DNA of 64,000 bases from Eledone cirrhosa (taxonomy: Eukaryota). Each line of letters opens with the position of its first letter. Position 1 is the first letter of the stretch. The position numbers and the translations under genes were made by a program. Under the pieces are notes generated by a model. The model was not told where the DNA came from and ran no database searches. It was given only the letters and a program-made list of their open reading frames with translations. The DNA lies in the NCBI GenBank assembly GCA_964016885.1, contig OZ024745.1:97650001-97714000 (forward strand), written 5' to 3'. Positions 977 to 63,906 of the stretch are shown here, piece by piece.

Positions 977-2107
<1,131 letters not shown>

Positions 2108-2722: not shown

Positions 2723-2833
2723 GTATTCTGAGGATTTGGTCAGAGGTAAATAATGTAATGGAGATCGAGTGAGGCAACTTCGAGCGATTAGCAGCCTCTA
2801 GACTCACCTGATCAATGAAACAATTGTTAATAC
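2723..2833 (+). ncRNA. Type-I hammerhead ribozyme, family A, 64-nt loop II, in PLE 3' UTR
   Basis: gtatt-CTGAGGA-t-ttggtcag...ctgatcaa-t-GAAA-caattg-TT-aatac: helix I 5 bp, helix II 8 bp, palindromic helix III ACAATTGT. Confidence 0.75.
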
Positions 2834-5073: not shown

Positions 5074-5612
5074 TATGTACACGTACATACATATATGTAT
5101 ACAGACGTACAGTAGTATGTATATATATACATACATGCACACATATATATATGCACGTATGGACTCACCGAACAACTACTATAGTGCTCGGTGTGTCTGT
5201 AAACAAACACCCGGCCGATTAGCCCACTCGATATGCAAATTGGGCTACTCAGTCGTTAATATGCATAAGGTAAGTATATACGTTCAACAATCTGGCAGGA
5301 AGGTATACGTTGCTGACGATAGCTAATAAGCTTGAAACTAGTACAGCGTTCCTTTGTCAGTGTTGAACAAACGAGCAACGATGGTTGCTAGACACTACGG
5401 CTTAATACGGGATGTTTGTTTACAGACACACCGAGCATTATAGTAGATATTCGGTGAGTCCATACGTGCATATATATATATGTGTGCATGTATGTATATA
5501 TATATACATACTACTGTACGTCTGTATACATATATGTATGTACGTGTACATACTTATATTTAAGTATCAGCCGTACTAAGAGTGGGAAATGAAATTTCGT
5601 TTCATTTTTTCC

Positions 5613-7336: not shown

Positions 7337-8031
7337 AGACGTAAAATTATAAAATTATAAAAATTAACTTACTTATAATTGTTCTGTATATAATTGTTCT
7401 GCATCCGCTTGCATTGAACCACAAAGTTACTAAGACAAAACCTATATATTTGCTAGCATAGGTATGCATCTGTATATATATATATTGGTAGATATACTAA
7501 TTCTTTATAATTATCTCCAAATTATTTTGTTGAGCAAAAATTTGCCAAAACTGCTACTATAGTTCATAATAATGGTTCGGCTACTGTCTTTTTAACACCC
7601 CATTCCTCACTGATTAACCTCGATGTCACGTGATTGATTCTTTTGAATTTGCCACCGACCAAGTAGGCAGTGATTTTTTCAATTTCTTGGAATTTACTCC
7701 ACGCTTGCTTTTTTCCATCCACTGAATTATTTTTGTATAAGTTCCCTGTGTCCACGCATCGCCTGGGAACTTCGCTGAGAACAGACTTCCTGATGACGAA
7801 AGGTTTCTCCATGCGTTCCATTCGGAAACCATATTTATTCCCTTTCAGAAACTAATTAGTTGGAGTGAAATTTTAGTAAGTAAGTTAATTTTTATAGTTT
7901 TCTTATTTTACGTCTTTCATATAATTGTTCTGCATCGCCTTGCATGGAACCACAAAGTTACTAAGACAAAACCTATATATTTGCTAGCATAGGTATGCAT
8001 CTGTATATATATGTTGGTAGATATACTAATT

Positions 8032-12002: not shown

Positions 12003-12058
<56 letters not shown>

Positions 12059-12157
12059 GAGACTGCTGGCATTTCAAATTTGGCGGTCATTCTAGCACGG
12101 AGGGGTACCATCGCTGAACATTAATATCGTTTTTTTTATATCGATATTTGTCGGGCA

Positions 12158-12279
12158 TCCACTGATGATTTATAAGTGCCCACCTACATATATTCCTACG
12201 GACTATGTGTAGGCTTCTACATAACCTGGACATTATTTTCCCAATTTGTAGAAAACTTATAATGAAACGATCGTTTGGA
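12158..12279 (+). ncRNA. Type-I hammerhead, family G, 77-nt branched loop II
   Basis: tcca-CTGATGA-t-ttataagt...acttataa-t-GAAA-cgatcg-TT-tgga; loop holds hairpins cctacata/tgtgtagg and ttctaca/tgtagaa. Confidence 0.75.
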
Positions 12280-12529
12280 AAGAGAGATGTATTTTAATTA
12301 TGTCTCATATAAAATAATACAACTGGCTATCCGCAAAATACGTATAGTTAGCACCCCAAACGTATAATTGGGATTATACTAATGTATATCCTAATGTTTG
12401 TTGAGTGTGACGGAAGCCGGTCGGATTATTGCTTAAAGCTTTCTCTGTTAATGTATTAAATATATATATATATATATATATGTTATGAAATACTGTTAGC
12501 TTATCGCTAAAACAATTTCTACACTTTTC

Positions 12530-12748: not shown

Positions 12749-12791
12749 GTAACCTACGCGTTTCATTCTTATTAGAAATCTTCAGGATTAC
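12749..12791 (-). ncRNA. Type-I hammerhead, family H, copy 1
   Basis: gtaatc-CTGAAGA-t-ttct-aata-agaa-t-GAAA-cgcg-TA-ggttac. Confidence 0.88.
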
Positions 12792-13058: not shown

Positions 13059-13101
13059 GTAACCTACGCGTTTCATTCTTATTAGAAATCTTCAGGATTA
13101 C
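13059..13101 (-). ncRNA. Type-I hammerhead, family H, copy 2
   Basis: Identical to copy 1, 310 bp away. Confidence 0.88.
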
Positions 13102-13529: not shown

Positions 13530-13572
13530 GTAATCCTGAAGATTTCTAATAAGAATGAAACGCGTAGGTTAC
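13530..13572 (+). ncRNA. Type-I hammerhead, family H, inverted copy
   Basis: Identical motif on the + strand. Confidence 0.88.
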
Positions 13573-26220: not shown

Positions 26221-26800
26221 TATATGGTTCGTTGATTATTCAACGAATTCAGTTTTACAATAGATTAGAAACACTCGTCAGTATTTATCTGGAGTATCTA
26301 TATTATTCCTGCCACTACAGGAATTGATGATTCAAGTACCTTAGCGGTATGCCGCATATCCAATCTCTTATATATTTTATCTGATGAAAACGTACTGAAA
26401 CGCCATTGTACCTTTGAAATATGTATAATAAAATATATACTTTGGTTATGATATTTCTCATTTATTAATATTTTGAATAATATTATATATATATATATAT
26501 CATGAATCAAAACATATCAACATATCATATGATGAGAATTTTGTATTTCTCAATAAGCAAGCTCAATGCACTTTATCCAGAGCCATAATAACCAAATGAA
26601 AAAGATATATGTATATTCACCAATCTTATTTCTAGCGGAGTTATCGCCCACCTTGTTGATAACTATTTGCCTTGGGTTTAACGGGATTTCACCATGTGCT
26701 TCTAAGCATCACGGTCACTATGAACTTAGCTGTGGATAGTGGCAGGTATATTGATTTATTTACCATCTTCATCCTATATTTCCTTTAGAATGGTGAGACT

Positions 26801-26925
26801 AAACCTCCGATGAGTACCTGAGTCTTATATGGTTTCATCATAATCGATAGTTTGTCATCAATGATCGATTATATAGATTGATTTTGAGCCACACTGTCTA
26901 TGTATAAAATAGCGCTATAAGGTTT
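26801..26925 (+). ncRNA. Decayed large-loop hammerhead, family L (84-nt branched loop II; U4C, G12A)
   Basis: aaacct-CCGATGA-gtac...gtat-AAAA-tagcgcta-TA-aggttt; loop holds hairpins ataatcgat/atcgattat and atagat/gtctat. Confidence 0.55.
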
Positions 26926-37576: not shown

Positions 37577-37619
37577 ACGATGTACTAGTTTCAAGCTTAT
37601 TAGCTATCGTCAGCATCGT
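37577..37619 (-). ncRNA. Type-I hammerhead, family D
   Basis: acgatg-CTGACGA-t-agct-aata-agct-t-GAAA-ctag-TA-catcgt. Confidence 0.87.
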
Positions 37620-38065: not shown

Positions 38066-38108
38066 ACGATGCTGACGATAGCTAATAAGCTTGAAACTAG
38101 TACATCGT
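38066..38108 (+). ncRNA. Type-I hammerhead, family D
   Basis: Same motif on the + strand. Confidence 0.87.
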
Positions 38109-48905: not shown

Positions 48906-49285
48906 GAGAGAGAGGGAGAGTGCTGGAAGAGAGCGAGAGAGAGAGGGAGAGTGCTGGAAGAGAGCGAGAGAGAGAGAGAGTGATGGAAGAGAGCGAGAGA
49001 GAAAGAGAGGTAGCAGAAAGAAAGTGAGAGAGACAGATTATCATCATCTTCATCATCATCATCATCATCATCACCACCAGTATCATCATCATCATCACCA
49101 GTATCACCATCGTCATCATCACAATGATTCATCACCACCACCGCTACCGCCACCCGCCTCCTTCTTCTCCTCCTTATCATCATCATCATCATCATCATGT
49201 ACTGGGTGCATTTTATTGTGGCATCAGCATTATCACTTTACAACATGGACTGGCTGTATTTTATTGTAGTACTAGTACTGCAACC

Positions 49286-50722
49286 ATTACAGAGTGGACT
49301 GGGTGCATTTTATCATGGATCAGCCCTATAAACATTACAGAGTAGACTGGGTGCATTTTTTCATGGATCAGCCCTTTAAACTTTACAGAGTGAACTGGGT
49401 GCATTTTATCGTAGATCAGAATTACAGTATTACAGAGTCAACTGGGTGCATTTTATCGTAGATCAGAACGACAGTATTACAGAGTAGACTGGGTGTATTT
49501 TATCGTAGATCAGCACTACAGTATTACAGAGTGGACTGGGTGCATTTTATCGTAGATCAGAATTACAGTATTACAGAGTGGACTGGGTGCATTTTATCGT
49601 AGATCAGAATTACAGTATTACAGAGTGGACTGGGTGCATTTTATCGTAGATCAGCACTACAGTATTACAGAGTGGACTGGGTGCATTTTATCGTAGATCA
49701 GCACTACAGTATTACAGAGTGGACTGGGTGCATTTTATCGTAGATCAGAATTACAGTATTACAGAGTAGACTGGGTGTATTTTATCGTAGATCAGCACTA
49801 CAGTATTACAGAGTGGACTGGGTGTATTTTATCGTAGATCAGCACTACAGTATTACAGAGTGGACTGGCTGCATTTTATCGTAGATCAGCTCTACAGTAT
49901 TACAGAGTGAACTGGGTGCATTTTATCGTAGATCAGAATTACAGTATTACAGAGTGAACTGGGTGCATTTTATCGTAGATCAGCTCTACAGTATTACAGA
50001 GTGAACTGGGTGCATTTTATCGTAGATCAGCACTACAGTATTACAGAGTGGACTGGGTGCATTTTATCGTAGATCAGAATTACAGTATTACAGAGTGGAC
50101 TGGGTGCATTTTATCGTAGATCAGACTACAGTATTACAGAGTGGACTGGGTGCATTTTATCGTAGATCAGCTCTACAGTATTACAGAGTGGACTGGGTGC
50201 ATTTTATCGTAGATCAGAATTACAGTATTACAGAGTGGACTGGGTGCATTTTATCGTAGATCAGCACTACAGTATTACAGAGTGGACTGGGTGCATTTTA
50301 TCGTAGATCAGCACTACAGCATTACAGAGTGGACTGGGTGCATTTTATCGTAGATCAGCACTACAGTATTACAGAGTGGACTGGGTGCATTTTATCGTAG
50401 ATCAGAATTACAGTATTACAGAGTGGACTGGGTGCATTTTATCGTAGATCAGCACTACAGTATTACAGAGTGGACTGGGTGCATTTCATCGTAGATCAGC
50501 TCTACAGTATTACAGAGTGAACTGGGTGCATTTTATCGTAGATCAGAATTACAGTATTACAGAGTGGACTGGGAGTATTTTATCGTAGATCAGCACTACA
50601 GTATTACAGAGTGGACTGGGTGCATTTTATCGTAGATCAGCACTACAGCATTACCGAGTAGACTGGGTGCATTTTTTCATGGATCAGCACTACAGTATTA
50701 CAGAGTGGACTGGGTGCATTTT
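49286..50722. repeat. 47-bp minisatellite, about 30 copies
   Basis: attacagagtggactgggtgcattttatcgtagatcagNNNtacagt; period 47 (49501 to 49548). Confidence 0.95.
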
Positions 50723-51030
50723 AAAGAAATGTAAGGAGATATACAAGCAGAAAGAAGGTATGAGAAGTGAACTAATGTGAAACGTTGTGAAGTGAAGTGT
50801 GACGGTTTGAAAATGGGAAGAGAGGGAGAGAGAGAGAGAGAGCAAGGGAGAGAGAGGGGGGAAGAGATGGAGAGAGAGAGGGGGGAGAAAAAAGATATGG
50901 AAGATAAAGAGTAAGAACGGAAGAGATAAAGAGAAAGAAAGAGAGAGAAAGCGAAAGCGAAAGAGAGATGGGGAGAGAGAGAAAGAAAGAGAGAGAAAGC
51001 GAAAGCGAAAGAGAGATGGGGAGAGAGAGA

Positions 51031-53139: not shown

Positions 53140-56100
53140 CTACAGAACAATGTAGAGAGAAGGCCCATTTACACGGGCCATTCTCGCTTCTTTCACCCAC
53201 CTTTCATAAAACTGTCTGGGACCAAGCACTTCTCTCTCCATCCTGATTCTTCTTCCGAAGTGGTATCGGAAGAAGTAAACCAGGTGATGGCCGGAGAGAA
53301 AGTCACCCGACCTCAGACCTTTCAGGCGCGTCCACCACACAACCTCTTTCATCATGGCTATTACGCACAGAAAGACCGCCTCTGCTTCATTTCTGAAGGG
53401 AGGAGGCGGCTTGATGTTCACCACAGACTCGGCGGTTAATCGAATCGGCGCCACACGCGACAGCAGTCGTTCGACGTAGCCCCACAGATCGGCAACGCCC
53501 GGGCAGTGTACCAGTGCATGCGCAACGGTTTCCTCGTCGCGCACGCATCTGGGACAGATCTTTTTCGCGGGATCCCTGCCCGGGCGCCCGTGTCTGTAGA
53601 GCTTTTCTCGAACGGGCAGAGCCCCCCGGTAACACTGCCAGGCTAGGGACCTCTGGAAGTTGTCCATGGGTCCCGGGCCGAAAGTTCTACCGAACAGGCT
53701 GGCCAGTTCGTCCTCCTCCATGCCTAGCGACTCTCCAAGGGTGTCGTCGCCCCTGCTAGCCACCAACCCTCTATAGAATGTCGAGGTGGATTCTCCACTG
53801 ACAGTCGGGTCCGCTTGCCAGATAGCCGTGAGCGCCTGGGCACACTCAGTGTGCCAGTTGCCCAGTTTTCTCGGTCTTTGCTTCACCCAGGATTGCAGTT
53901 CGGTGAGCGAGACGAGCTGTGGGAAGGCTCGCCTCACAAACGGGGCCCACACCGGCTGACCGTTGAGGAATACCTGTAGATGCCGTAGCCTCAATGCGTG
54001 CCTACGCATCAACAGCCACGGCATACCCAGCCCTCCTTTCGAAGGGTGCTGGCAGCAGATGGATCTCCTCACCATGGGAGGCCGCTTCTTCCAGAGGAAC
54101 TGGAAGAGCATGCGTTCCATGATGGTGAGCTTTTCCTTGGGGCAAGGCACGACGGTCAGGCGGCAGTAGATGACGGACGCTATGTAAGCGTTCGTCACCT
54201 CCGCCCGACCTTTCAGTGATAGTTTGCACTTGGCCCACTTCTGGGTCAGCGCAAACACCCTGCTCGTCACCTCGCCCCAATTCTTCTCCACCTGGAGGTC
54301 CGGTCCGAACCAGACCCCGAGCAGCTTCACCGGGCCCTCCGTCCACCGCCCGACGACACCGTCTAACGGCATCGGTTTGCCCCTCCACGTTCCGAGTTGC
54401 AAACCGACTGACTTGTCCTGGTTCAGCTTAGCCCCCGTCAGCCTTTCGTATTCCTCCAGTAGGGTGGCGATCGCCCCGATTTCCGAGGCGTCCGCCACCA
54501 TTACTGTTACGTCGTCGGCATAGGCCGAGACCGCTTTGTGCAATCCCGGTTCCAGGGGTATGCCCCGCAGCAACTCCAACTTCCGCAGCAGTGGCTCGAG
54601 AGTCAATACGTACAGAAGGGAGGAGAGGGGGCACCCCTGTCTGATGGATCGGGTGATTTGAAACGGCTCCGAGAGGTAGCCGTTTACTTTAATCCTAGAG
54701 TAGATGTTGCCACTGTGCATGGCAGAAATCCAGCCCCTGAAAACGGGTCCGAAGCCCGCCGCCGCTAGCACTGCATCCAGGTAACCATGGTCGACCCTAT
54801 CGAACGCCTTAGATTGATCCAAGTTGATCAGGGCCCCACCAAAGCCGGGTTCGTAGCCAACCCTCTCTATGATGTATCGCATGAGGTGGAGGTTGTCGTG
54901 AATGGACCTGGACGGGATAGCGCATGTCTGCGCGTCTCCCACCAAACCACCCACCACAAGCGCCAACCTCTTCGCCAACACCTTGGCCAAAATCTGTAAC
55001 TCTGCATTCAGCAGAGTTATGGGCCTAAAGTTACTTAAGTCGTCCCCCTTGCTCTCGTCCTTCCTCACTAGCGTGACCACGCCCTTGGTCACAGAACAGG
55101 GAATTCTCCCGTTCTGTTGCCAGTTGCAATAGACAGCCTCGAGGAGTTCGGAGAACAAGACCGGCATAGCTAAATAAAGTTCGTATGGTAGACCATCGAG
55201 ACCCGGGGATTTGCGTCTGCTGCATTGGCTGAGCGCTTCCCCGATTTCAGTGGCTGTGATTGGCCCTTCGCAGCACTCCGCTTCGCCGCTCGAAAGACGC
55301 GGTAGACCGTCGAGGTATGGACCGAAGTCCACATCCCCGTCCGGCCCCCCGCCACCTCCGAACAGTCGAGCAAAGTGCCTTTGAAAGGTCTCGCACATTC
55401 GCTCAGGTTCAAGGATCACCCGTCCATCCTGGTCTCGCAAAGACCGAATGGTGGATTTAATCCCACTCTTGGCTTCTGTCACGCGGGCCCAGCTAACAGC
55501 TTTGGTCCCCTCGTTTCCTAAAGCACGTATTTTACTTCGGACAACGCAGCCTTCGTGCTTCGCGTCAAAGAACTGGCTCAATGCCGTTCTCGTCGCTAAC
55601 ACTCTGGCTACGTCTCCGCTCCTAATCGCCTCTTCTAGTTTATCTGTTAACTCCCTTTCCCTCCTATTTCTATTCGCCGCTAGTTCCTTACTGTAACCTA
55701 TCGAACTTACTCTAATCTCTCTCTTTAGAGATATCCACCACCTACTGTTGACGATCGCTCCCGTCAACCGCATCTTAACTAAGCTACTAATCCGGTTTCT
55801 GTAATCTTTCTTTGTCGGTAAGGACAAGTTCATCTTCCAGTAACCGGGACCCTGTCTATGCGTTCTATCAAGGTTGACCACGCAGGTCACTAATTTGTGA
55901 TCTGAATAGCCAACCATGATCAGTTCTGGACAACTAAATACGTCCCTATCCTTACTCCTAACTAAAAACCTATCTAGGTACGATCTAGATTGTCCACTGC
56001 GGTTTGCCCAGGTCCAGGTTGGCGCAGTTGGACAATCTAGTCGAAATCTATCGACCAGGTCGAATCGATCGAGTAACCCCTTGAGGCTGCTACACCCCCC

Positions 56101-56572
56101 TCTATCGGGACATGCCCCTGCATAGTCCCAACGCGCATCTAGGATTCCATTCCAGTCCCCCACTAAAAGCAGGGAACGCGACGTTCCTAGAAAAGTCTCC
56201 AGACGTTGGAAGAAGTCGGCTCTCTCCGCCCCGAAGGGAGCATAAAGACCGACCAGTCTGAAAGCCCCGCCTTCACCACCTCCGACGTCCAGCACCAGTA
56301 ATCGACCCCCCGGGTCCGAGTGAACAATCTGTACGTCGAGAGTCAGACGTTTATCCAGCAGTACGGCAACTCCCCCCCCCCCCGCCTCCGGGTTGACAGA
56401 GAGATGCGTGCATCTCAAAGTCATCGAAGGCGGGCGCCAGCTGTCTCACGCTGCTGATCCGACTCTCGCAAACAACCATCACATCTATACTTTGTGACCT
56501 GAGGTCACTTAGAAGCTTTGCTTGCTTCCAAGCTGAGCTCAGGCCACGCGCGTTCAAACAGCCAACTCTCAA
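53140..56572 (-). pseudogene. Tx1 ORF2 (APE endonuclease, RT, Zn finger); one frameshift in a G/C homopolymer at about 56372-56383
   Basis: CLNARGL..CES / GDWN, YLDRF, SDH; KSPGLDGLP, FRPITLLN, LDQSKAFDRV, RQGCPLS, YADD; CPRC..ET..H...C. Confidence 0.92.
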
Positions 56573-58880: not shown

Positions 58881-61800
58881 CTACAGGCTTATAAACAGAG
58901 AAGGCCCAATCACTCGGGCCATTTTCGCTTCATTCACCCACCTTTCAGTAAATTTACTGGGGTGCAGTGCCTCTCTCTCCACCCTGATTCTCCTTCTAAA
59001 GTGATACTTAAAGAAGGGAATCAATTGTTGTCCGGAGAGAAAGGCATCTGTCCTCAGTCCTCTCAACCTCGTCCACCATATAACTTCTTTCACCATAGCC
59101 ACCGTACAGAGGAAAACCGCCTCTCTTTCGTTTTTGAAAGAGTCTGGCGGTTTGATCCTTACTATGGACTCGGCAGTCAACTGTATTTGTCCCATACGCG
59201 ACAGCAGTTGTTCTGCATAGTTCCACAGGTCGCTTACGCCCGGGCAGTGTACAATTACGTGCAGAACTGTTTCAATGTCCTGCGCACATCTTGGACACGT
59301 CTTCTTGGAAGGATCCCTGCTGGGGCGTCCGTGCCTGTAGATCTTGCCACGAACCGGTAGAGCTCCTCGGTAGCACTGCCAGGCCAGGGACCTCTGGAAG
59401 TTGTCCATAGGTCCCGGGCGGAAAGTCCTACCAAACATACTGGTGAGCTCATCGTCTTCGACGCCCAGAGTCTCTCCGAGCACGTCGTCGCCCTTGTAAC
59501 GTACAATCCCTCTATAGAATGTCGAAGTGGAGTCTCCACTGATTGCTGCGCCCGCTTGCCAGAGGACTGTGAGCGCCTGAGCGCATTCAATGTGCCAGGC
59601 GCCCATCGTTTTCGGTCTTTTCTTCACCCAGGACTGCAGCTCCGTTAGCGAGACGAGCTGTGGGAAAGCCTGTCTCACAAACGGTGCCCACACCGGTTGG
59701 GGGTCGGTGAGGAATACCTGGAGATGCCGCAGCCTCAGCGCATGTTTGCGCATCATCAGCCACGGCATTCCCAGCCCTCCGTTGGAAGGGTGCTGACAGC
59801 AGACGGATCTCCTCACCAGCGGAGCCTGCTTCTTCCACAGAAACTGGAAGAGCATGCGTTCCATCTTGGCGAGGTGTTCACGGGGACAAGGCACGACAGT
59901 CAAGCGGTAGTAGATGACGGACGCTATGAAAGTGTTCGCCACCTCCGCTCGACCTTTCAAGGACAGTTTGCACTCTGCCCACTTCTGAGTGAGTGCAAAC
60001 ACTTTGGCCGTGACCTCGTTCCAGTTTTTCTCCGCCTGGAGGTCTGGACCGAACCAGACCCCGAGCAATTTCACCGGTCCGTCCGTCCAGCGTCCAACGA
60101 CGCTGTCGGATGTCATCGGTTTGCCTCTCCACGTACCGAGTTGCAAACCGACAGACTTGTCTGGGTTTAGTTTTGCTCCCGTCAGCGTTTCGTATTCTTT
60201 CAGTATGTTGCCGATCACCCCGATTTCCGAGGTGCTCGACACCATTACTGTCACGTCGTCGGCATAAGCCGACGCCGCTTTGCGCAGTCCCGGTTCTAGG
60301 GGGATGCCCTGCAACAGCTCCAATTTCCGCAGTAGTGGCTCTAGAGTCAATACATACAGAATGGAGGAGAGAGGGCATCCCTGTCGAATGGAACGCGTGA
60401 TTGCGAACGGCTCCGATAGGTAGCCGTTCACCTTGACCCTCGAGCAGATGCTGGTGTGCATCGCCTCGATCCATCCTCTGAACACGGGACCGAAACCGGC
60501 CGCCTTGAGAACCGCTTCCAAGTATCGATGGTCGACCCTATCGAATGCCTTAGACTGATCCAAGTTGATCAGAGCCCCACCGAAGCCGGGTTTACTACCC
60601 ACCCTCTCTATGATGTATCGCATGAGGTGGAGGTTGTCGTGTATGGACCTGGTCGGGATTGCATACGTTTGCGCTTTCCCTACCAGGTTCTCGACGACAA
60701 GCGCCAACCTCGTCGCTAGCACCTTGGCCAAAATCTTTAACTCTGTGTTGAGCAGAGTTATGGGCCTGAAGTTGTTAATTTCGTCCCCCTTGTTCTCGTC
60801 TTTCCAGATCAGCGTTACTACGCCCTTGCCTGCAGAACTGGGAATTCTCCCGTTCTGCTGCCAATTGCAGTAGACGGCTTCGAGGACGCCAGAGAACAAG
60901 TCCGGCATGCCTATGTAAAATTCGTAGGGTAGACCATCTAGACCGGGTGACTTGCGTTTCCCGCAGCGGCCCAGAGCGTCCCGTATCTCAGTGTCCGTGA
61001 TCGGTCTTTCGCAGAACTCGGCGTCCGTGTTCGAGAGACGCGGCAGGCCGTCGAGGTATGAACTAAAGTCCATTGCCCCGTTCGGCTCACCGTCGTTCTG
61101 CTCAAACAGTCGCGCAAAGTGCCGCTGAAAGGCCGCGCACATTTGCTTGGGGTCAAGTAGCACGCGTCCGTTTTGGTCTTTCAAAGACCGAATCGTGGAC
61201 TTGTTGCCACTTTTTGCCTCCGCCACTCGGGCCCAGCTGACAGCTTTCGCTCCTTCGTTTCCTAGAGCACGTGTTTTGCTTCTGACCACGCAGCCTTCGT
61301 GTTTCGCATCGAAGAACTGGTCCAGTGCCGTTCTCGACGCTAACACTCTAGCCGCGTTGCCACTTCTAAGTGCCTCCTCTACCTTGGCTACTAGTTCTCT
61401 TTCTATTCTGTTTTTCTCTAAGGCTAACTCTCTGCTATACCCTATCGATTCTATTCTAATTGCTTTCTTGAGAGAGTACCACCATCTATTGTTGACGATG
61501 GCTCCCGTTAACTGTTGCTTGACTAGTTTACTTATCCGTTCACTGTAAGCTTTACGTGCCGGCAACGACACGTTCAGCTTCCAGTATCCGGGACCCTGTC
61601 TATGTATTCTATCACGGTTGACTAAGCAGACGACTAACTTCTGATCTGAATAGGCAACCATGTGCATTCGTGGACAGCTTAACATATCCTTGTCCCTTTC
61701 TCTAATGAAGAACCTATCTAAATACGATCTAGATGTCCCACTGCGGTTTACCCACGTCCACTGTGGTGCAGTCGGGAAATCCAGTCGATACCTATCGGCC

Positions 61801-62327
61801 AGTTGGAATTGGCCGATTAAAGTTTTGAGGCTGTTGCACCCCGCTCTACTGGGACATGCTCCCACATAGTCCCATCGTGCATCTAGGATACCATTCCAGT
61901 CCCCCACTAAAAGTAAGGAGCGAGACGTTCCCAGAAAAGACTCTAGACGCTTAAAGAAGTCTGGCCGTGATTGCGATTGCCCGGTCGGGGCATAAACGGC
62001 CACCAGTCTGAAGGCTCCACCTCCGATACTGTTCACGTCTAGGACTACCAGTCTACCCTCCGGGTCCAAGTGTACTTGCTGTACTCCGACGTCCAGGTTC
62101 TTCCGAAACATAACAGCCACTCCACCTCCACCTCCTGGCTGACAGAGAGATGCGTAGATCTCAAAGTCGTCGAAGATGGGGGTTAGTTGCTGCCTGTTGT
62201 GGATTCTGGACTCGGTGATGGCTATCACATCCATACTGTGTGACCTAAGGTCGTTTAAAAGTTGGCCCTGTTTCCAGGGCATCCCTAGGCCACGCACATT
62301 CACGGTTCCAACTCGTAAACCAGCCAT
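58881..62327 (-). CDS. Tx1 ORF2, uninterrupted 1148 aa from MAGLRVG (APE, RT, Zn finger); SDH changed to SDQ
   Basis: TVNVRGL, ITES, GDWN, YLDRF, YSDQ, YADD, CPRC..H..HC. Confidence 0.92.
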   Translation of the reverse strand: MAGLRVGTVNVRGLGMPWKQGQLLNDLRSHSMDVIAITESRIHNRQQLTPIFDDFEIYASLCQPGGGGGVAVMFRKNLDVGVQQVHLDPEGRLVVLDVNSIGGGAFRLVAVYAPTGQSQSRPDFFKRLESFLGTSRSLLLVGDWNGILDARWDYVGACPSRAGCNSLKTLIGQFQLADRYRLDFPTAPQWTWVNRSGTSRSYLDRFFIRERDKDMLSCPRMHMVAYSDQKLVVCLVNRDRIHRQGPGYWKLNVSLPARKAYSERISKLVKQQLTGAIVNNRWWYSLKKAIRIESIGYSRELALEKNRIERELVAKVEEALRSGNAARVLASRTALDQFFDAKHEGCVVRSKTRALGNEGAKAVSWARVAEAKSGNKSTIRSLKDQNGRVLLDPKQMCAAFQRHFARLFEQNDGEPNGAMDFSSYLDGLPRLSNTDAEFCERPITDTEIRDALGRCGKRKSPGLDGLPYEFYIGMPDLFSGVLEAVYCNWQQNGRIPSSAGKGVVTLIWKDENKGDEINNFRPITLLNTELKILAKVLATRLALVVENLVGKAQTYAIPTRSIHDNLHLMRYIIERVGSKPGFGGALINLDQSKAFDRVDHRYLEAVLKAAGFGPVFRGWIEAMHTSICSRVKVNGYLSEPFAITRSIRQGCPLSSILYVLTLEPLLRKLELLQGIPLEPGLRKAASAYADDVTVMVSSTSEIGVIGNILKEYETLTGAKLNPDKSVGLQLGTWRGKPMTSDSVVGRWTDGPVKLLGVWFGPDLQAEKNWNEVTAKVFALTQKWAECKLSLKGRAEVANTFIASVIYYRLTVVPCPREHLAKMERMLFQFLWKKQAPLVRRSVCCQHPSNGGLGMPWLMMRKHALRLRHLQVFLTDPQPVWAPFVRQAFPQLVSLTELQSWVKKRPKTMGAWHIECAQALTVLWQAGAAISGDSTSTFYRGIVRYKGDDVLGETLGVEDDELTSMFGRTFRPGPMDNFQRSLAWQCYRGALPVRGKIYRHGRPSRDPSKKTCPRCAQDIETVLHVIVHCPGVSDLWNYAEQLLSRMGQIQLTAESIVRIKPPDSFKNEREAVFLCTVAMVKEVIWWTRLRGLRTDAFLSGQQLIPFFKYHFRRRIRVEREALHPSKFTERWVNEAKMARVIGPSLFISL

Positions 62328-63906
62328 GTTGGTGAAGAAAAGTTGGAGAAAAAGGACGAAAGGTGCTTTTCGTTTCCTGGAGATCGAGTTGTTCAATCTC
62401 CATTTGGGTGCTGGATGGGGTGTTGGGTGGGGTGGGGAAACCTTTCAACAGGACGCGGTTGATGGGTTTGTGGCAGGGGTTGCCCACGTCCTGTGAAAAT
62501 TTAATTTTCAGGTCTTTATAGGTTTCCATAGAAACCCTTATAAGTTTAAGGTGTGGAGACGATTCTGCCTTGACGAAAGTTTTGCCCTCCGTCTCCACCT
62601 TGGGGTTTTGGGAGATGACCTCCATCAAACTCTTGTTGTTTGTGTTGATGTATGCGTATTGTTGTTTGTGTTTTTGTTGTATTGTTTTAGTTTGTTGTTC
62701 ATCTGGGAGTTTTCTTTTTATGGTGGGTGCTTGTGTTTGGGGTGGTGTTGGTGCTGGTTTTGCTGATAGGGGGGTGTTTGACTGTGGTGTTGTTTGTGTT
62801 GTTGTTTGTGTCTGTGGTTTGGTGTTGGTGATTGGAGTTTTGGGGGTTTTGTGGTGTCTCTTTTTTTGTTTTTTGGATTTCCGCGGTTCTCCCTCTTCTT
62901 CACTTAAAGAAGGAGAAGCAGCTTCATCCGTCGATGAATAATCATCGTCAGGTGTGTGGGGTAAGGGTATGTGGTGTGGTGGTGGTGGTGTTTCGGTATG
63001 TGTGTTTGTGGTAGTGTTTGATGGAGTGGGATGGAGTGGGGATGTGTTCTTCAGGGGTGTTGTCTCTGTTTTTTCTGTTGTTGTTGGTTGAGTGTCTGTT
63101 TGTTTTGGTGTGGTTGTTCGTTTCGTCTGTCGTTGTACTTGTGGTGGTGGTGGTGGTTGTTTTGGTGTTGGTGTTGGCAATAGCGTTTTTTTTATGATGT
63201 TGCTGTTGTGTGTTTGTGGACAAGAGGCTTTTAGGTGAGATGTGCTACCACAGCGAAAGCAGTGAAATTTTCTTCCTTCTACCGAAATGTTTATTTTGTT
63301 GTTATTATCAATAACGACTCTTTCGGGTATTTTGGAGATTCTCTCCGGTTTCATTTGCAACAGAATCTCCAAATCGGTGCCCGCCCACCTTTGTCGAATG
63401 GATTTTCGTATCGAAAGTATTATGTCTGTTTCTGGCTCTACGAAGCCAGCCAAGATCCACCAAATGTTAATGCTTGGAGGTATGTTTTTTATTTTTATTT
63501 TTTGTGTCCTTTTCCCCATGTATGTAGGGAAAAAGGTGTATGCTTTTGACACTATTGGTGTCACAGAGTTTTTTTGGGCCAGTGTCTCGCTTTTAAACAG
63601 TACGGAAACACTTCCGTACTGTTTTCCTCGCTGGAGAAAATCGACATTTCCTAGAATCTCCTTGAAAGAATCTTCTATATCTGACTGATTAACAAATGTC
63701 GGTTTTCTTGACGAATTTGACACAGTCCTAAAAGTGACTGATCGGCGGTTTGTGTCTTCCTTTATTTCAAGGGGTGAGTTAATTCCAAACCCACCTCTTT
63801 CTTCGAAAGTTACAAATTTTCTCCCTTGCTGGAGCATATCTCTTGCGTTGGAGATATCAAGATTTATAAAATCTTGTTTCTTGTTGACTGTGTCAGCAAA
63901 AGACAT
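62245..63906 (-). CDS. Tx1 ORF1 (CCHC knuckle); overlaps ORF2 by 83 nt; true start may be further upstream
   Basis: CFRCGSTSHLKASC; colinear with element A ORF1. Confidence 0.87.
   Translation of the reverse strand: MSFADTVNKKQDFINLDISNARDMLQQGRKFVTFEERGGFGINSPLEIKEDTNRRSVTFRTVSNSSRKPTFVNQSDIEDSFKEILGNVDFLQRGKQYGSVSVLFKSETLAQKNSVTPIVSKAYTFFPTYMGKRTQKIKIKNIPPSINIWWILAGFVEPETDIILSIRKSIRQRWAGTDLEILLQMKPERISKIPERVVIDNNNKINISVEGRKFHCFRCGSTSHLKASCPQTHNSNIIKKTLLPTPTPKQPPPPPQVQRQTKRTTTPKQTDTQPTTTEKTETTPLKNTSPLHPTPSNTTTNTHTETPPPPHHIPLPHTPDDDYSSTDEAASPSLSEEEGEPRKSKKQKKRHHKTPKTPITNTKPQTQTTTQTTPQSNTPLSAKPAPTPPQTQAPTIKRKLPDEQQTKTIQQKHKQQYAYINTNNKSLMEVISQNPKVETEGKTFVKAESSPHLKLIRVSMETYKDLKIKFSQDVGNPCHKPINRVLLKGFPTPPNTPSSTQMEIEQLDLQETKSTFRPFSPTFLHQHGWFTSWNRECAWPRDALETGPTFKRP

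Follow-up and report, generated by a model that had tools for sequence, protein, structure and literature searches.

A hammerhead motif with an enlarged, branched helix II and a predicted leader pseudoknot in a retrozyme-like repeat of Eledone cirrhosa

The hammerheads of Penelope-like elements (PLE) are described as minimal, slow and devoid of tertiary contacts (PMC7761336, PMC6155905), and their role has been called a mystery (PMC7761336). The descriptor of Cervera and De la Pena (2014) allowed a stem II of 3–7 bp and a loop II of 3–10 nt (PMC4209133). The enlarged hammerheads of Eledone cirrhosa described below share with the minimal hammerheads of the PLE pseudo-LTRs (PMC4209133) the type I topology, a helix I of 4–5 bp and a helix II of 7–8 bp, as well as a palindromic helix III; both kinds also lie at the 3′ ends of PLE-type insertions and are dispersed in thousands of copies. 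They differ in what helix II encloses: in the motifs of Fig. S3 of that work (56 by its legend) it is a hairpin of about 25 nt or less, in line with the earlier statement on this DNA that PLE hammerheads are usually minimal with a short helix II, whereas here the region measures 49–121 nt and includes an internal loop or a junction. Additionally, the G10.1–C11.1 pair of the minimal motifs is mostly replaced here by U.U or A–U, and a leader pseudoknot is predicted, unlike in the PLE motifs without tertiary contacts.

A second group of close relatives are the non-LTR retrozymes (PMC7229834; bioRxiv 10.64898/2026.07.22.740005), which are likewise non-coding tandem units of low GC content with one type I hammerhead each, occur as monomers to short arrays and have been proposed to be non-autonomous derivatives of PLEs. 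The 720-nt unit described here falls within the 51–972 bp range of the retrozymes reported by Li, Clavereau and Pollet in 2026 (10.64898/2026.07.22.740005). On the other hand, the hammerheads of non-LTR retrozymes are canonical or minimal with a short helix II, and circular RNA has been shown for them, whereas the present analysis concerns DNA alone. Pseudoknotted hammerheads of bacteria, phages and the human C10orf118 gene resemble the present ones in the Watson–Crick helix predicted between the regions of stems I and II (PMC3088659), a crystal structure being available for a type II hammerhead (PMC11300833). Here, unlike in PMC3088659, the partner strand belongs to a long helix II, within which it occupies an internal loop or a multi-helix junction, and the hammerheads are those of retroelements of the dimer type; the pseudoknot statistics of Perreault et al. 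(2011) left out repetitive type I motifs (PMC3088659).

Neptune-type EN+ PLEs (PMC8557442) also insert at (TA)n targets and form tandem and inverted structures. The cysteine motif described before the GIY-YIG domain for Neptune and Nematis (PMC8557442) is present before the C-terminal GIY-YIG domain of one element found here (F2, see below), whereas the 720-nt unit, unlike Neptune-type elements, encodes no protein. With relaxed descriptors, Craig et al. (2021) described half cores 35–50 nt apart in some Naiads (PMC8557442); as a candidate hidden member of the enlarged class, the Naiad_Ovul motif (one of eight, inspected by eye) was rejected, since its GAAA precedes CTGATGA. No PLE or retrozyme hammerhead with a helix II of 50–120 nt was found in the literature consulted, although the study of PLE hammerhead dimers by Lunse, Weinberg and Breaker (2017), the alignments of Perreault et al. 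(2011) and bioRxiv supplements could include cases. Both the ribozyme and the kind of element that carries it are known; the present motifs stand apart by their enlarged helix II and the predicted leader pairing.

Table 1. Features of the hammerhead at 12158–12279, of the repeat that carries it and of the other enlarged families in the window
Feature	Position	Strand	Remarks
5′-truncated copy of the ~720-nt non-coding tandem unit	12055–12461	+	407 nt; between (TA)n runs
Leader strand GGGCA	12153–12157	+	complementary to 12177–12181; predicted pseudoknot
Helix I, TCCA/TGGA	12158–12161/12276–12279	+	4 bp; descriptor scan
Catalytic core CUGAUGA (CTGATGA)	12162–12168	+	read from sequence
U.U at 10.1–11.1, base of helix II	12169/12263	+	letter-by-letter check
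Helix II (helix IIa), TTATAAGT/ACTTATAA	12170–12177/12255–12262	+	8 bp above U.U
Helix IIa strands including U.U	12169–12177 and 12255–12263	+	two-sided changes in 4/9 pairs
Enclosed insert	12178–12254	+	77 nt; two hairpins inside helix II
Junction strand GCCCA	12178–12182	+	partner of leader
Hairpin 1	12183–12213	+	two-sided changes in 5/10 pairs; pair probability 0.99
Hairpin 2, clan-specific	12215–12253	+	small distal stem 12228–12230/12239–12241
GAAA	12264–12267	+	
Helix III, self-complementary	12266–12275	+	10-nt palindrome; duplex -10.0 kcal/mol
Predicted cleavage site	after U12275	+	GUU ends at 12275; sequence motif
Broken C-terminal PLE protein piece upstream of F2	1691–2104	+	cysteine motif, then GIY-YIG-like motif
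Family F2 hammerhead	2723–2833	+	82-nt helix II region; 3′ end of autonomous-type PLE
Family F4 hammerhead	7785–7866	+	51-nt helix II region (helix, internal loop, hairpin)
Family F3, core-mutated copy	26794–26925	+	leader TGAGACT (26794–26800) complementary to strand above helix II

The motif at 12158–12279 (Table 1) lies on the forward strand of the window, by which we mean the whole 64-kb stretch of DNA analysed, and comprises an intact type I hammerhead core with helices I, II and III in order and helix I as its open end. The first-pass annotation had proposed a canonical core whose 8-bp helix II encloses two hairpins, and this was verified letter by letter. The helix II domain (about 95 nt; 97 nt as folded) reaches -28.0 kcal/mol with a z-score of -5.7, and none of 200 shuffled sequences folded as well; a descriptor with a palindromic helix III matched the window nine times, and 20 block-shuffled windows yielded no match. 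It is a genuine intact type I hammerhead motif, for which self-cleavage is predicted. The R10.1–Y11.1 pair is absent from the window copy, where U.U takes its place, and the standard pair occurs in 17 of 33 subfamily representatives; a natural U.U at the base of helix II has precedents in PMC3088659 and, in an active axolotl hammerhead, in PMC7229834. The idea that hairpin 2 arose by duplication of hairpin 1 found no support, as 953 of 2000 symmetric shuffles score equally well.

Rfam reported no hammerhead at the gathering score in the window, nor at E-values up to 10 in 12100–12350, a miss that is expected at this motif because of the 77-nt insert, and the scan of the window by E-value gave only microsatellite-driven noise from miRNA models among the matches listed (150 of 255). 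The expectation that searches with a capped loop length overlook such motifs thus holds for Rfam as for the 2014 descriptor. Six ordinary short type I hammerheads are also present in the window (5313–5343, 13536–13566, 13065–13095, 12755–12785, 38072–38102 and 37583–37613), with a 14-nt helix II region, U.U at its base and 4-nt palindromes; they belong to two other families and some form inverted pairs. A hammerhead-like motif with a 10-bp helix I and a weak helix II region of 28 nt lies at 26381–26427, and motifs like it recur within inverted repeats at three genomic loci (L021, L099, L260). Elsewhere, the window holds two LINE-type long open frames in tandem on the reverse strand (53143–56445 and 58884–62444; endonuclease/phosphatase, RVT_1, zf-RVT), each preceded by another ORF, and a 47-nt tandem minisatellite of about 35 copies (49233–50847).

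The 5′ limit of the repeat that carries the motif (12055) is the start of its homology to genomic copies, and its 3′ limit is the common 3′ end of the family. A search of the TA-rich 3.0-Gb host genome with this element gave 3307 candidates, the best 40 at 95–97% identity. Upstream, the genomic copies continue as a longer unit that begins directly where the preceding one ends, successive cores at one such locus (L262) being 720 nt apart, and six-frame translation of the 720-nt unit revealed no long open frame. Arrays consist of 2–3 units with a period of about 700–760 nt, or of about 990 nt in another subfamily. Adjacent units of an array are in some cases from different subfamilies (L260:5016–6431, L003:858–1610), which suggests insertion beside older copies or template switching. 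The common 3′ end, which lies 186 nt beyond the predicted cut and is followed by TA, was found in 56 of the 56 copies examined; counted from the cut, their 5′ ends are scattered between -138 and -904, and 14 of the copies reach further than one unit. A fixed 3′ end, 5′ truncation, partial tandems and a (TA)n target are the insertion signature of Penelope-like elements.

An autonomous element carrying the hammerhead of this group of relatives (hereafter the clan) was not found among 117 loci that contain the clan, where the nearby ORF pieces are parts of other insertions. Endonuclease-coding DNA lies at most 1.4 kb upstream in only 3 of 75 clan copies, at dissimilar distances, and no ORF combining reverse transcriptase (RT) and GIY-YIG between pseudo-LTRs was found for the clan. 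Contigs of four sequencing runs (two organisms) contain the family with variant letters, with no informative ends or joints. The window copy is a solitary truncated monomer, probably inert in place.

Exact patterns for an intact clan core gave 283 and 1643 matches in the genome (with slight overlap) and none for the reversed controls, and further subfamilies of the clan were recognised at 18 of 30 loci examined among the 3324 matches of another pattern; intact-core relatives number thousands in this genome. For the alignment, 107 distinct sequences were clustered and one natural representative was taken from each of 33 clusters; the letters of core and junction were built into the search patterns, and the conservation of both is therefore partly forced in these sets. 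Across the 33 representatives 88.9% of the cells are paired, compared with 31–45% for slid control structures, and two-sided changes occur in 13 of 43 named pairs: 4/9 in helix IIa, 5/10 in hairpin 1, 1/7 and 1/5 in hairpin 2, 1/4 in helix I and 1/3 in helix III. None of 500 shuffles reached the observed paired cells, cells with two-sided change (84) or covariation score, and two count measures among the five covariation measures lie within the shuffle range (39/500 and 342/500). In hairpin 2, CG replaces UA in the base stem of 20 copies, and UA replaces AU in the distal stem of 35 copies. RNAalifold recovered both hairpins only and missed helices I, IIa and III; in rows whose helix III is longer, the columns of helices I and III are out of alignment, and helix I was anchored separately. 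Helix II and the inner hairpins, on whose conservation the first reading had been made to depend, are both kept across subfamilies with compensatory changes.

Outside the insert, helix I reads TCCA/TGGA in 79 of 120 copies and CCCA/TGGG in 29, and helix III is a GATC-type palindrome in 74 copies of the 120, a GGCC-type palindrome in five and longer and non-palindromic in about 30. The latter form, with three pairs and a loop, characterises a large subfamily (e.g., L201:1487–1626), which may be able to cut as a monomer. Among variants common to at least 3 of the 120 copies, 19 of 37 keep the pair, compared with 18 of 77 rare ones (Fisher p 0.005), which suggests that the RNA fold was under selection during amplification.

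An enlarged helix II is not confined to this clan. In hand-picked genome stretches totalling 800 kb, of which 100 kb flank the window, the descriptor gave 28 matches, and none in five shuffles: 16 with helix II regions of 13–20 nt, 11 with regions of 49–82 nt and one artefact across a TA run. A pattern with a 40–65 nt spacer matched 3748 times in the genome, compared with 234 for its control, and the 135 distinct enlarged motifs among the loci examined fell into 13 groups. Enlarged families share a plan of basal helix, internal loop and distal helix, and the positional equivalent of this single distal helix in the clan would be hairpin 1. With the basal helix enforced, two hairpins were found in 72 of 75 clan members and in only one of 60 members of the other groups, the remaining 59 having one hairpin. 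An expanded hammerhead class, as the first-pass annotation had inferred, does exist in this genome, in PLE-type elements, and is conserved with compensatory changes; the two-hairpin four-way junction that was to define it, on the other hand, is a feature of the clan.

The 64-nt loop reported earlier at 2723–2833 is present, but its fold is a single rod, in 22 of 22 copies of this family (F2). The endonuclease-coding end of the element lies 615–651 nt upstream of the hammerhead in 9 of these 22 copies, and at one locus (L252) two F2 hammerheads stand 3349 nt apart around RT and endonuclease pieces, the layout of an RT plus GIY-YIG ORF between pseudo-LTRs. Pfam detected nothing in eight PLE protein pieces, including the one at 1691–2104; the nearest atlas clusters of the F2 protein (best three) carry PF26215 in 27–56% of their members, and one of them also GIY-YIG. 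The clade of the F2 element is probably Neptune, judged from the cysteine motif before its GIY-YIG-like motif rather than from a tree. In most of 12 F2-clan copies (L421–L443) the family sequence starts no more than ~10 bases before the core, and the start often coincides with an inverted helix II region; this start point may be a transcript start, a splice site or a hot spot of reverse-transcriptase switching.

At 26801–26925 the first-pass annotation had seen the same two-hairpin layout as in the clan, which did not hold: the window copy of this family (F3) has two core changes (CCGATGA, AAAA), and its intact relatives are differently built, a 7-bp helix being followed by an internal loop and another helix, past which the fold is unstable. 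Among 18 parsed F3 copies (of 24) the distal fold is one hairpin in nine, two in six and three in three. Other enlarged families are also found in tandem (L269–L295, L047/L049, L044, L419), with periods near 483, 421, 532 and 990 nt. In a metagenome scan (10 of 64 parts, 42–72 nt spacer) none of the 119 matches listed had helices I and II, and they are regarded as chance matches.

A more general feature than the junction is a complementarity between the leader and the strand above helix IIa. In the window copy GGGCA, just before helix I, is complementary to TGCCC (12177–12181), which leaves helix IIa, and the relation recurs in other families in different letters: GAGAA/TTCTC, GGAAAAT/ATTTTCC, TGAGACT/AGTCTCA and AAAGA/TCTTT, and in further families TGAGAAG/CTTCTCA, GAGCG/CGCTC beside GAGTT/AACTC, and GGAAA/TTTCC. 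With leader windows of fixed position, at least five Watson–Crick pairs were found in 8 of 17 cluster members, compared with 23 of 272 cross pairings (92/20000 when the 11 merged groups were permuted). With windows widened after inspection of the data, the same threshold was reached in 8 of 13 group medoids and in 19 of 156 cross-family pairings (permutation 7/50000); both permutation values overstate independence because the groups are related. The control strands gave 2/13 (opposite loop strand) and 0/13 (3′ tail). At least four leader pairs persist in 24 of 29 and in 14 of 18 copies found by patterns that do not require pairing. No such pairing was seen among the 14 short-helix families listed, nor in four singleton groups. 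Within the clan the leader helix has a two-sided change in none of its five pairs and is broken by 8 of 11 shared variants, only three leader pairs are left in a repeated subfamily (L444), and in F2 the pairing is inconsistent between subfamilies. The leader thus covaries between families and not within the clan, and a pseudoknot is the likely structure predicted from these letters; leader pairing is the more general and more testable feature, and the four-way junction is that of the clan.

Several families with helix II regions of ~50 nt (L277, L270, L293, L116, L126) have a purine-rich leader and pyrimidine-rich strands on both sides of the internal loop, the 3′ loop strand being U-rich and parallel to the leader. 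This geometry fits a possible U.A–U triple helix, and may resemble that of ENE elements.

On balance, we hold that the hammerhead likely cuts multimeric transcripts of the repeat into units for copying by a PLE, with the leader docked above helix IIa. This mechanism starts from the anatomy, the covariation, the tandem units, the fixed 3′ end and the variable 5′ ends described above; cleavage, dimerisation, pseudoknot, circles and partner enzyme are steps that we infer. In read-through transcripts of tandem units, two cores would pair via their palindromic helices III, as in the dimer mechanism of newt, axolotl and PLE hammerheads (PMC4209133, PMC7229834). The leader before helix I would pair with the strand above helix IIa, and the resulting pseudoknot would align stems I and II and substitute for a loop–loop contact; a helix joining the regions of stems I and II raises cleavage in bacterial hammerheads (PMC3088659; see also PMC10085705). 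The hairpins would act as a scaffold that closes, orients and presents the docking strand, which most families build from one distal helix and a single strand, and the clan from two hairpins, where hairpin 2 would sit in the place of the single U-rich strand of other families. A cut after U12275 would yield unit-length RNAs, and multimeric or circular RNA would be reverse-transcribed into (TA)n by a PLE enzyme starting 186 nt downstream, with mobilisation in trans by a Neptune-type PLE. Reverse transcription of PLEs is described as starting inside the RNA downstream of the hammerhead (PMC11167929). A point against this mechanism is that, in an anole PLE, hammerhead cleavage was dispensable for insertion in vitro (PMC11167929).

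The leader helix could also be a competing fold that forms first during transcription and keeps the ribozyme off until a protein or partner unit refolds it, the enlarged helix II then being a component of a timing switch. In nested folding it rivals helix IIa (pair probabilities 0.47 and 0.48), together with both hairpins it reaches -30.4 kcal/mol, no less stable than the monomeric hammerhead (-28.0 kcal/mol), and it appears in the centroid structure of the 141-nt region; moreover, the anole PLE hammerhead is reported to cut only with protein (PMC11167929). However, the leader helix and helix IIa can coexist since their strands overlap by one base only, and the near-constant register in eight groups (4–8 nt before C3 and 6–9 nt after A9) is expected of a tertiary contact rather than of a decoy, although the clan at 12158 has the poorest register of the set (4 vs 8 nt). 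We regard such a switch as unlikely, while giving it more weight than the readings that follow.

The distal part of helix II could, alternatively, be tolerated bulk, a self-folding sequence kept since unstructured inserts misfold the ribozyme or the circular RNA. The free change of length, such as the internal duplication of 30 nt seen in several F3 copies, the deletions within hairpin 2 in single copies and the singleton groups lacking leader pairing would agree with this. On the other hand, the helix II region is held at 95 nt in 65 of 75 clan copies while subfamilies average about 75% identity, and the leader complementarity recurs with different letters; passive bulk appears improbable. 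Least probable of all, if only slightly less so, is a branched domain to which the PLE reverse transcriptase or some other protein would bind, in keeping with the RT-recognition or regulatory module suggested by the first-pass annotation: non-autonomous units must recruit an enzyme somehow and the base stem of hairpin 2 is the most sequence-conserved part of the insert (mean column conservation 0.96 in 120 copies, partly forced by selection on its letters), but across families inserts of 49–121 nt vary in sequence and branching and coexist in the genome with short versions of 13–20 nt, a free variation that fits a scaffold better than a recognised module, reverse transcription would start 186 nt downstream, and the anole PLE, the one studied in vitro, needs as its protein-binding region RNA of the first 172 nt of its ORF, which lies downstream (PMC11167929).

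With the leader docked on a scaffold as the preferred reading, we tentatively propose, at somewhat less than even confidence, that these hammerheads form a distinct structural class, in which the 5′ leader forms a pseudoknot with the internal loop or multi-helix junction that a long helix II carries (perhaps a triple helix where leaders are purine-rich and opposite strands U-rich), and which is present in many thousands of copies in one animal genome, in autonomous PLEs as well as in retrozyme-like units, and missed by descriptors. Helix II is the usual site for engineered inserts, and the natural series of 14, 50, 82, 95 and 121 nt, with one or two hairpins, would indicate what the hammerhead fold tolerates there. 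The predicted leader pairing allows a mutate-and-rescue test that would distinguish selection for faster from selection for timed cleavage. In about two fifths of the hammerheads (11 of 27 plausible matches in the 800 kb) helix II is too large for the published descriptor and Rfam. If the class is real, hammerhead counts in animal genomes are too low because its members are invisible to current descriptors, and some elements called ribozyme-free or contact-free would not be so.
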